Made by a program: the position numbers and the translations under genes. Positions 25,634 through 26,848 of a DNA stretch of 32,000 bases are shown piece after piece; position 1 is the stretch's first letter, and each line of letters begins with the position of its first letter. The notes beneath the pieces are model-generated. The model saw only the letters and a program-made list of their open reading frames with translations. It had not been told where the DNA came from and searched no databases. The stretch lies in NCBI GenBank assembly GCA_028713575.1, contig JAQTOB010000002.1, positions 1-32,000 of the forward strand. Reading direction: 5' to 3'. The DNA is from Patescibacteria group bacterium (lineage in GTDB: Bacteria > Patescibacteriota > Patescibacteriia > UBA2591 > UBA6264).

Positions 25634-26848
25634 ATGAGAGTAGTTCATCTTGTTTCTACTTTTCCTCCTTATAAAGGGGGAATGGGCAATGTTTGTCTGG
25701 CACAAGCCAAAAATCTTGCTTCTTTTGGTCATCAAGTTTCCGTTTATACTCCCCTAGAGACTTCTTTGGAGATTTTGGAGACCAGGTCTCCAAAGAAGTG
25801 GATTTTGGAGACCAGGTCTCCAAAATCTAGGTCTCCAAAATCTATTTCGGACGCGGGATTTGCAGTGAGATATCTCAAACCCCTGTTTAAATACGGCAAC
25901 GCCGCTTTTGTGCCCGGTATTATCAAGAGTTTGAAAAATTTTGACCTTATTCATTTACACTGGCCGTTTTTAGGCGGAAGCGAAATTCTTCTTTTATGGC
26001 GTTTGTTTAGGAAAAAACCAAAATTGATAGTTCAGTATCATATGGATTTAATCGCTCCGGGATTGAGGGGCTTAATTTTTAAATTAAACTTTTTTTTATT
26101 TGCGCCTTTAATGGTCAAACTGGCGGATAAAATTTTAGTTTCTTCACAGGATTATTTAGAACATTCTGATTTAAAAAGACATTGGTTGAAAAATAAGGAA
26201 AAATTTATAATTAGTCCTTTCGGCGTTGACCAACAAAGATTTTTCCCGCAAGAAAAAAAAGGTGAATTACTGGAACAATACGGCCTAAAAAACAAGAAGA
26301 TTATTTTATCAGTCGGCGGTTTAGACAGAGCTCATTATTTTAAAGGCGTTAGATTATTAATTATGGCCTTAACTGAACTAAAGGACAAAATGCCTGATTT
26401 ATACTTATTGCTGGTCGGGGAAGGAAATTTACGGCCGGAGTATGAAAAATTAGCCAGTGATCTGGGAATAAAAAAAAGAGTAATTTTTAGCGGCCGGGTT
26501 GAAGATAATCAATTACCAGATTATTACAATTTAAGCGATGTTTTTGTTTTTCCTTCTTTTAGTCGGTCCGAGGCGTTTGGCTTGGTTTCTTTGGAAGCGA
26601 TGGCTTGCGCCAAACCGGTTATTCTTTCCGATTTGCCCGGAGTCAGAACTTTAGCAAAAGACAACGGATTAATATCTAAAGTTAACGACATAGATGATTT
26701 AAAGGAAAAAATTATTTCTATTTTTTCTTGTTCGGAAAAATTGAAAGCAATGGGGGAGAATGGGCTACGAATGGTTAAGGGCAAATATCATTGGCTGTCC
26801 ATTGTTAAGGAGATAGAGAAAATTTATGTTCAAGCAGTTGCTTCGTAG
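25634..26848 (+). CDS. GT4-family (group 1) glycosyltransferase carrying an in-frame palindromic repeat insertion
   Basis: MRVVHLVSTFPPYKGGMGNV N-terminus. C-terminal E-x7-E region FPSFSRSEAFGLVSLEAMACAKPVI. The insertion at 25760-25843 encodes ...LEILETRSPKKWILETRSPKSRSPKS... Confidence 0.9.
   Translation: MRVVHLVSTFPPYKGGMGNVCLAQAKNLASFGHQVSVYTPLETSLEILETRSPKKWILETRSPKSRSPKSISDAGFAVRYLKPLFKYGNAAFVPGIIKSLKNFDLIHLHWPFLGGSEILLLWRLFRKKPKLIVQYHMDLIAPGLRGLIFKLNFFLFAPLMVKLADKILVSSQDYLEHSDLKRHWLKNKEKFIISPFGVDQQRFFPQEKKGELLEQYGLKNKKIILSVGGLDRAHYFKGVRLLIMALTELKDKMPDLYLLLVGEGNLRPEYEKLASDLGIKKRVIFSGRVEDNQLPDYYNLSDVFVFPSFSRSEAFGLVSLEAMACAKPVILSDLPGVRTLAKDNGLISKVNDIDDLKEKIISIFSCSEKLKAMGENGLRMVKGKYHWLSIVKEIEKIYVQAVAS
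25760..25843. repeat. Palindromic element with tandem arm duplications, in frame within the GT4 CDS
   Basis: Outer stem ACTTCTTTGGAG (25760-25771) with CTCCAAAGAAGT (25788-25799). Core palindrome TTTGGAGACC-a-GGTCTCCAAA occurs twice (units start at 25771 and 25801). AGGTCTCCAAAATCT is exactly duplicated at 25814-25828 and 25829-25843. Confidence 0.85.

Follow-up and report, generated by a model that had tools for sequence, protein, structure and literature searches.

In-frame palindromic repeats in a glycosyltransferase gene of Patescibacteria probably belong to a REP-like family associated with a Y1/HUH transposase

Introduction

How does a block of DNA made up entirely of palindromes come to lie, in frame, inside the gene of an apparently intact enzyme? 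The question is raised by an 84-nucleotide segment within a gene for a GT4-family glycosyltransferase, found in a 32,000-nucleotide stretch of DNA (hereafter the window; contig JAQTOB010000002.1, positions 1 to 32,000, assembly GCA_028713575.1) from a member of the Patescibacteria, the candidate phyla radiation (CPR). These organisms count among the smallest and most gene-dense bacteria, and mobile DNA is generally said to be scarce in them. A reading of the window made from the sequence alone (the original prediction) assigned the segment to a family of palindromic repeats and proposed that it had entered a tolerant loop in frame, in the manner of Rickettsia palindromic elements (RPEs), and was not ordinary coding sequence. 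Our analysis upholds this central reading, mostly with evidence that the sequence alone could not give: the segment is absent from orthologues, it falls within a loop modelled with very low confidence (predicted local distance difference test, pLDDT, <50), and its core is found elsewhere in unrelated genes. We show that the repeat occurs at dispersed sites, that it has been gained relative to orthologues, that the inserts occupy loops or linkers, and that a transposase gene is associated with it. We consider it probable that the GT4 segment is made up of clustered copies of a palindrome resembling repetitive extragenic palindromic (REP) elements, with the core (T)TTGGAGACC-N-GGTCTCCAA(A), which is dispersed in Patescibacteria and associated with a Y1/HUH transposase resembling a RAYT (REP-associated tyrosine transposase).

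Results

Architecture of the palindromic block

The block at 25760–25843 consists of nested perfect palindromes together with tandem copies of 30 bp and 15 bp, and of nothing else (Table 1). The outer stem is formed by 13-nucleotide arms, ACTTCTTTGGAGA (25760–25772) and TCTCCAAAGAAGT (25787–25799), which are 100% complementary. The core TTTGGAGACC-a-GGTCTCCAAA occurs twice, at 25774–25794 and 25804–25824, where the number expected in shuffled sequences is 0. Its second copy is the second unit of the 30-bp tandem repeat and extends to a 13+1+13 palindrome, and the 24-nucleotide sequence GATTTTGGAGACCAGGTCTCCAAA recurs in the block with the same 30-bp spacing. In the frame of the open reading frame (ORF) 25634–26848 the 84 nucleotides translate to TSLEILETRSPKKWILETRSPKSRSPKS; the core in its general form, TTGGAGACC-N-GGTCTCCAA, contains zero stop codons across all six frames. 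Folding of the block is strong relative to shuffled sequences, both as RNA (-48.3 kcal/mol, z -5.8) and as DNA (-27.4 kcal/mol, z -6.9). The outer stem, doubled core, 15-bp duplication and preserved frame described in the original prediction were each verified, and its term 'GC-rich' is apt relative to the surroundings (43% G+C, against 36.5% in the remainder of the coding sequence and 34% in the window) but not in absolute terms. No T run stands behind either hairpin of the GT4 copies on the sense strand, and in the terminator scan it is the antisense strand alone that is flagged, its tail being weak. Rfam holds no known RNA family for the palindromes (the sole match was a tRNA-Gln), and a check for phage origin gave no match to the palindrome in viral contigs.

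Lineage specificity, stability and predicted structure

Homologues of the host protein contain the Glyco_transf_4 and Glycos_transf_1 domains and are named as GT4 proteins of Patescibacteria. Orthologues typically have 380 amino acids, as against 404 here. The closest of them (P0002, locus L001) shows a clean gap of 66 nucleotides at the block, i.e. a net gain of 66 nucleotides in the window; at only 78% identity, this orthologue does not define the exact boundaries of the insert or a target duplication. The block is therefore specific to its lineage, as had been proposed. Within that lineage it is stable. The 151 nucleotides around the insert are identical in four assemblies from separate samples (the window, L017, L039 and L040; Joint Genome Institute (JGI) twice, and Logan), and five variants of the protein that are 99–100% identical, from NCBI metagenome-assembled genomes (MAGs), two JGI metagenomes, Logan and the European Nucleotide Archive, all have 404 residues and the same insert. 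A strain 99.4% identical over 16.4 kb has no difference in the block nor in two intergenic hairpins of the window that are described below. Copy-number heterogeneity of the 15-bp and 30-bp units, which the original prediction had proposed to look for, was likewise not seen between strains at 99.0–99.5% identity.

An AlphaFold2 model of the GT4 protein (pLDDT 87.6, predicted template modelling score 0.85) retains an intact GT-B fold. Residues 46–70 have a pLDDT below 50 and form a loop between beta2 (strand 34–40) and beta3 (strand 76–81), in agreement with the surface-loop placement that had been anticipated. The loop after beta2 is hypervariable, and in other lineages it carries unrelated repeats of their own. 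Within the gene for one such orthologue (P0004; L002, 340–430), the direct repeat AATTCCAAATCCAAAATTCCAAATTCCAA occurs twice around 39 nucleotides of unrelated G+C-rich sequence. The insert in the window is probably a disordered 22-residue extension of this loop that is neutral for the enzyme.

Dispersal of the core in Patescibacteria

The exact core TTGGAGACCAGGTCTCCAA has 11 matches in a 596-Gb genome collection, where approximately 4 are expected by chance. Nine of these fall within three Patescibacteria MAGs, and the two non-CPR matches fit the chance expectation; the GT4 locus of the window is not among the 11, its genome being absent from that collection. A metagenome scan with N at the centre returned 22 stretches, nearly all of 32–43% G+C. 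The core TTGGAGACC-N-GGTCTCCAA is present in 34 non-redundant copies on Patescibacteria contigs, from lineages including Saccharibacteria and Paceibacterota, and because it sits at this many sites the GT4 segment cannot be regarded as local coding sequence. Half of the copies (17 of 34) lie in frame inside 14 Pfam-confirmed genes, the others being intergenic or unassigned. The products of the host genes are the GT4 protein, UvrB, a UvrA-like ABC protein, a MiaB-like methylthiotransferase, PriA, HolB, ComEC, Dus, an HD hydrolase, a PMT-type glycosyltransferase, a TPR protein, a GT2 protein and two Y1_Tnp proteins. Across these genes the core is read in all three frames (giving LETRSP, WRPGLQ or GD(Q/L)VSK), and every genic copy keeps the reading frame of its host. 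Palindromes of this general design are abundant: 250 kb of non-redundant CPR DNA contained 94 perfect G+C-containing palindromes (about 0.3 per kb), where about 2 were expected, and 56 of the 94 have a centre of a single nucleotide. The repeat units measure 21–31 nucleotides, with perfect arms of 9–19 nucleotides.

The UvrB gene of locus L025 allows an insertion to be seen against a close relative. The palindrome there lengthens the protein by 4 amino acids, as judged against both an orthologue of 82% identity and the solved structures of UvrB; its right outer arm, CAAAAAG, is native sequence, and its left outer arm is the inverted copy of this. The region encoding the C-terminal part of the same protein (L025, 10865–10887) contains a second palindrome of another type, ACTTAGAGGT-ttc-ACCTCTAAGT, which encodes DLEVSPLSE and corresponds to a gap in the solved structures. 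Across CPR homologues of UvrB (P0247–P0366), lengths range from 634 to 737 amino acids, and many lineage-specific inserts have peptides of palindrome style: one position has LGNGVSK, LGNSVSE or LGNPVSK, while LPAGLPAGASAQAGASAKDG and SPFGGSPAGR are found at others. In both genes and spacers, full palindromes repeatedly have a single arm added in tandem, once or twice, before or after them (sites in Table 1). These recurrent extra arms, and the inverted left outer arm in UvrB, fit an origin by replication slippage or fold-back copying.

A Y1/HUH transposase linked to the palindromes

Locus L031 comes from a metagenome that also yielded a 99%-identical copy of the GT4 locus. Within 3.6 kb it has 6 copies of the core, grouped around an ORF whose match to Pfam Y1_Tnp exceeds the gathering score, and more core copies lie on two further contigs of the same MAG. 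An ORF of the Saccharibacteria locus L006 likewise exceeds this score; the PF01797 matches reach 30–35 bits against a gathering score of 23. The family to which these proteins belong is large, with 3125 matches at E < 1e-5; the named members are mostly from Patescibacteria, and several have been labelled 'REP element-mobilizing transposase RayT' by the JGI. The HUH (NHYHF) and tyrosine (SAYINLN) motifs are conserved in 26 transposase sequences, and the proteins are 210–225 amino acids long. When an AlphaFold2 model of the homologue P0135 (pLDDT 78) was compared with the PDB by Foldseek, the top match was 4er8_A (E 1.6e-4, probability 1.0, TM 0.56 on the target), and the next were the TnpA proteins of IS608 and ISDra2 (2a6m, 2vjv, 2xm3). 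Searches of PDB sequences with the transposase by phmmer and by profile gave no match, and the link was made only by this comparison of folds.

Five distinct transposase loci (L031, L006, L033 with two genes, L035 and L036) have their own palindrome type both upstream of and inside the ORF. At L035 three identical 30-nucleotide copies of GTTTGGAGGTTCAGCCTCCAAAC occupy the upstream region and each of two positions within the ORF. The palindrome of L036, ACTTAGGAGC-cga-GCTCCTAAGT, recurs 8 kb away, and the second gene of L033 (L033b) has CTGTCGAAGTC-a-GACTTCGACAG on both sides. The first palindrome of L033, TTTGGGAACT-t-AGTTCCCAAA, has the same core as palindromes at 3321 and 10912 in the window: this 19-nucleotide core, TTGGGAACT-t-AGTTCCCAA, is found again, unchanged, both in front of and within the gene for the transposase P0129 (L033, 1–21 and 237–263), which comes from another Patescibacteria MAG. 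The palindromes within the ORFs encode heptapeptides (F/L-G-x-x-x-x-K) at two conserved positions, one before the HUH motif and one after the catalytic tyrosine, and the first of these is a disordered loop in the P0135 model. The two peptides of a gene are often identical to each other and different between lineages, with at least 7 identical residues in 34 of 102 homologues versus 19 of 2000 between-protein pairs. The transposase genes of L035 and L036, the one pair of loci compared, lie in conserved synteny, and the common neighbourhoods of these two homologues suggest vertical descent. At least 6 tandem copies of an 8-nucleotide unit, ATCAGTGA, are found just upstream of the palindrome preceding the transposase gene of L036 (9850–9900).

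Other palindromes in the window

The two intergenic hairpins at 24034 and 30054 (30054–30082) are two copies of one further palindrome type, found only in this lineage within the 366 kb compared. An ACTTCTT/AAGAAGT foot stands at the outer end of both hairpins (24034–24064 and 30054–30082) and of the GT4 block, on which ground all three had been assigned to the same family. By a rough estimate (<1e-3), a chance match at that position of the 7-nucleotide foot, the one basis for the proposed kinship, is unlikely. The cores, however, differ (GCAGGTC in the hairpins, TGGAGACC in the GT4 block), ACTTCTT is a common word in the window (20 occurrences, 5.9 expected), and the hairpin type is confined to this lineage. 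The hairpins are most safely regarded as a sister type within one class of palindromes, and as candidate relatives at most of the GT4 block. That two types of palindrome should have the same genome-specific foot would be in keeping with a common recognition element, which we offer as a lead and not as a result.

The palindrome at 3321 provides the final codons and the TAG stop of the ORF at 1858–3339. A second in-frame palindromic insert lies in the gene for a GT1-type glycosyltransferase (ORF 3549–4811), and the peptide that it encodes is missing from 17 of 17 aligned homologues. The remaining observations concern intergenic DNA. Positions 3462–3496, upstream of ORF 3549, hold an imperfect palindrome, ACCAGGTCGCACCTG-ggtgc-CAGGTGAGACCTGGT. 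The region at 9100–9726 includes a duplicated segment of about 45 bp (9330–9375 and 9615–9660), and at about 9388–9497 there is a 49-bp tandem repeat containing the small palindrome GGGGAC-t-GTCCCC.

Table 1. Palindromic features of the window and sites of extra palindrome arms. Positions are those of the window unless a locus is named.
Feature	Position	Strand	Remarks
GT4-family glycosyltransferase gene (host)	25634–26848	+	404 amino acids; from ORF list and domains of homologues
In-frame palindromic repeat block	25760–25843	+	84 nucleotides, 28 codons
Outer palindrome ACTTCTTTGGAGA ... TCTCCAAAGAAGT	25760–25799		encloses core copy 1
Core copy 1, TTTGGAGACC-a-GGTCTCCAAA	25774–25794		
Core copy 2, GATTTTGGAGACC-a-GGTCTCCAAAATC	25801–25827		perfect 13+1+13 palindrome
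Exact tandem duplication of 3' arm, AGGTCTCCAAAATCT x2	25814–25843	+	units 25814–25828 and 25829–25843
Palindrome AACTTCTTGCAGGT-cgc-ACCTGCAAGAAGTT	24034–24064		intergenic, between convergent genes; terminator-like, textbook T tail
Palindrome ACTTCTTGCAGGTC-c-GACCTGCAAGAAGT	30054–30108		intergenic; followed by two degenerate copies of its 3' arm, CTGCGAGAAGTG x2
Palindrome AAAAAGTTTGGGAACT-t-AGTTCCCAAACTTTTT with duplicated 3' arm	3321–3367		palindrome proper 3321–3353
Second copy of TTGGGAACT-t-AGTTCCCAA, core of the 3321 palindrome	10912–10930		intergenic
Second in-frame palindromic insert, TCCGCCAAAGGCGGA + TCCGCCTCTGGCGGA	3975–4004	+	encodes AKGGSASGGE; GT1-type glycosyltransferase, ORF 3549–4811
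Palindrome ATACACAGGTT-N-AACCTGTGTAT, three copies (9256, 9344, 9629)	9256–9659		intergenic, after tRNA-Gln (9117–9190)
Extra copies of a single arm	window 30083–30108, 3354–3367; L024 1908–1922; L020 1377–1389; L031 1181–1205, 1261–1290, 1813–1848		

Discussion

Comparison with known repeat systems

Di Nocera et al. (2013, PMC3733652) described intragenic REPs of the GTAG/CGTC type from several phyla, with uvrA and uvrB as frequent hosts. The REPs are palindromes of 20–40 nucleotides, mostly located between genes, of which a subset lies wholly within ORFs in hosts such as Opitutus, Rickettsia (RPE-4 and RPE-6, which are CGTC-type REPs) and Thauera. More than half of the intragenic inserts are dimers or groups encoding 20–30 amino acids, REP ends often give a TAG stop to the flanking ORF, and the inserts have been suggested to lie in loops or linkers; no transposase gene was found to be associated with the CGTC type, the class that includes RPE-4 and RPE-6 (PMC3733652). 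The original prediction had referred in-frame palindromes to Rickettsia, which is right in that RPEs are in-frame, but these elements are not confined to that genus. The Patescibacteria repeats resemble intragenic REPs as short dispersed palindromes, in the use of uvrA, uvrB and replication genes as hosts, in forming dimers that encode 20–30 amino acids, in their placement in loops or linkers, and in the donation of a TAG stop, as at window 3321. They differ in lacking the GTAG/CGTC tag, in being perfect to a 1-nucleotide centre rather than imperfect stems with loops of 2–20 nucleotides, in the host phylum, and in a far higher genic fraction (about half of the copies). We found no report of REPs, RAYTs or in-frame palindromes in the literature on Patescibacteria or the CPR.

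Of the features that define REP and REPIN systems, the short palindrome able to form a stem-loop is present (units of 21–31 nucleotides, with the fold z-scores of -5.8 for RNA and -6.9 for DNA in the GT4 block), as is a RAYT gene flanked by the same repeat, the arrangement called a REPtron, which is seen at L031, L006, L033 (for two genes), L035 and L036. A conserved GTAG/CGTC tag at one end is not (3 of 34 copies), and the extragenic location does not apply with 17 of 34 copies in Pfam-confirmed genes, an exception that is documented for intragenic REPs (PMC3733652). The transposase has the Y1_Tnp domain with HUH motif and catalytic tyrosine expected of a RAYT and a predicted fold like that of TnpA-REP, with 4er8_A as the top Foldseek match, and it scores below the equivalog cut-off of the NCBIfam RAYT model. 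A REPtron for comparison is that of E. coli TnpA-REP, the structure of which (PDB 4er8) shows the transposase bound to a REP hairpin (PMC3479197, PMC3333891, PMC8266576). As there, a Y1/HUH gene is accompanied by a genome-dispersed palindrome type, with synteny conserved in the L035/L036 pair; unlike there, sequence similarity is weak, the CPR protein is longer (210–225 amino acids), and cognate palindromes also lie inside the ORF, in two loops flanking the catalytic core.

RPEs can be compared with the Patescibacteria repeats by design and size. In both cases, palindromic repeats lie in frame within genes that stay functional and add surface peptide segments; in-frame insertion into an intact ORF, with absence from orthologues, holds for GT4, UvrB and ORF 3549. 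The host lineage differs, and the units of 21–31 nucleotides are much smaller than classical RPE-1, which measures approximately 100–150 bp. The insertion sequences of the IS200/IS605 group (IS608, ISDra2) have a transposase of the same superfamily and subterminal hairpins recognised in single-stranded DNA, but the Patescibacteria loci show no IS structure with distinct left and right ends and no tnpB, and the transposase gene lies in conserved synteny (in one locus pair). Very short palindromic or hairpin repeats, also within coding regions, are known as well from the small dispersed repeats and HIP1 of cyanobacteria and from the GC clusters and 'byp' elements of yeast mitochondria. Their sequences and hosts are unrelated to those described here. 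Ribosomes skip over byp elements, and these are free to break the frame; in our set, by contrast, all genic copies preserve it.

Origin of the GT4 block

Action of the transposase on a hairpin in single-stranded DNA is the proposed mechanism for REP/RAYT systems and has been shown for IS200/IS605. By the same route, the Y1/HUH transposase may recognise the palindrome hairpin in single-stranded DNA and spread copies of it, now or formerly. A hairpin once placed could provoke replication slippage or fold-back copying, which would account for the doubled arms and the 30-bp tandem unit, and for outer arms that repeat adjacent native sequence in inverted form. In gene-dense genomes many copies would hit genes, and selection would spare those that are in frame, free of stops and located in loops or linkers.

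Several observations weigh against this account. Copies of the exact core are few, 3–5 in the MAGs seen. GTAG or CGTC is found within 15 nucleotides on either strand at only 3 of 34 copies, the flanks being plain A/T-rich sequence, and the palindromes are fully symmetric and so offer no obvious cleavage polarity. Comparison of close strains revealed no presence/absence polymorphism and no sign of recent movement. The NCBIfam RAYT model (REP_Tyr_transpos, NF047646), which is the sole NCBIfam match of the transposase, is reached with 22–24 bits against a cut-off of 80. A tblastn search of the window found no transposase gene, with about 37 kb of this genome covered. Finally, the transposase genes could be frequent targets of the palindrome and not its agents.

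A different explanation gives the palindrome a function as a signal in nucleic acid, for example as a terminator working in both directions, as a hairpin that stabilises mRNA, or as the binding site of a dimeric protein. It would then be spread and maintained by selection or by gene conversion between copies, without a transposase, and the transposase genes would simply be among its carriers. The A- and T-runs that flank intergenic copies are terminator-like, the 24034 hairpin has the G+C-rich stem and T run of an intrinsic terminator, recent movement is not seen, and the perfection of 56 of 94 palindromes to a 1-nucleotide centre speaks for symmetry at the level of DNA rather than for an RNA loop. 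A terminator within UvrA, UvrB, PriA or GT4 would, however, be harmful, and the genic copies have no T tail in the sense direction, so that the GT4 copies do not qualify as intrinsic terminators. An uptake-sequence-like signal was rejected, because half sites on their own show no enrichment (25 against 14.6 expected). A signal also leaves unexplained why five Y1 loci should each have the palindrome of their own lineage upstream and at two positions in the ORF. We regard an explanation of this kind as rather unlikely, and continue to favour REP-like copies associated with the transposase.

The other alternatives fare worse. Tandem units of 30 bp and 15 bp are typical of slippage, and the GT4 loop is hypervariable, with other lineages having their own repeats there (e.g. 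L002), so the block might have arisen locally, by slippage and fold-back copying of native GT4 sequence, in no relation to other loci. The scans of the genome and metagenome collections reject such a purely local origin: an identical core of 19–27 nucleotides occurs among 34 non-redundant sites, in unrelated genes and spacers of Saccharibacteria and Paceibacterota, and slippage accounts for the secondary duplications but not for the origin of the core. We hold it to be very improbable. It is no more plausible that selection acts on the protein, with the repeated peptide LETRSPK serving as, e.g., a linker or modification site, and that the DNA palindrome is incidental. The frame is indeed kept, and a peptide rich in Ser, Thr, Pro and Lys resembles a flexible linker, but different genes read this DNA in all three frames, roughly half of the copies do not lie in genes at all, and the region is predicted to be disordered and is missing in orthologues. 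Palindromes and short tandem repeats are also classic sources of misassembly. An assembly or sequencing artefact, which the original prediction had named as something that would overturn it, was nevertheless rejected: four assemblies from different samples and pipelines are identical, and all five protein variants have 404 residues. The chance of an artefact is practically negligible.

Implications for Patescibacteria

Intragenic REPs and RPEs were known before. What sets the present case apart is the host, Patescibacteria, together with the lack of a tag, the perfect symmetry, the high genic fraction, and the cognate palindromes in the transposase ORF. The last of these raises the tentative idea that Patescibacteria possess a REPtron of new design, in which a Y1 gene carries cognate palindromes in its own frame, in two loops that bracket the HUH–Tyr core and change in concert with each other and with the dispersed repeat type. 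This is possible but doubtful; if true, it would suggest self-regulation, or else excision of the catalytic core by itself, and would mean that the proteomes of minimal genomes, including enzymes of DNA repair and the cell envelope, are systematically 'decorated' with repeat-encoded loops. Transposase genes with matching palindromes in the ORF would in any case form a compact system in which to test the recognition and copying of REP-type hairpins, a question that is open even in E. coli.

For genome analysis, the inserts would inflate protein lengths and disturb the alignments and phylogenies of CPR marker genes, and could be used as lineage markers. A palindromic repeat system with its own HUH transposase, if confirmed, would be an overlooked force shaping the genomes and proteins of Patescibacteria, one that furnishes essential enzymes, among them UvrA, UvrB, PriA, HolB, ComEC and glycosyltransferases, with short disordered loops.

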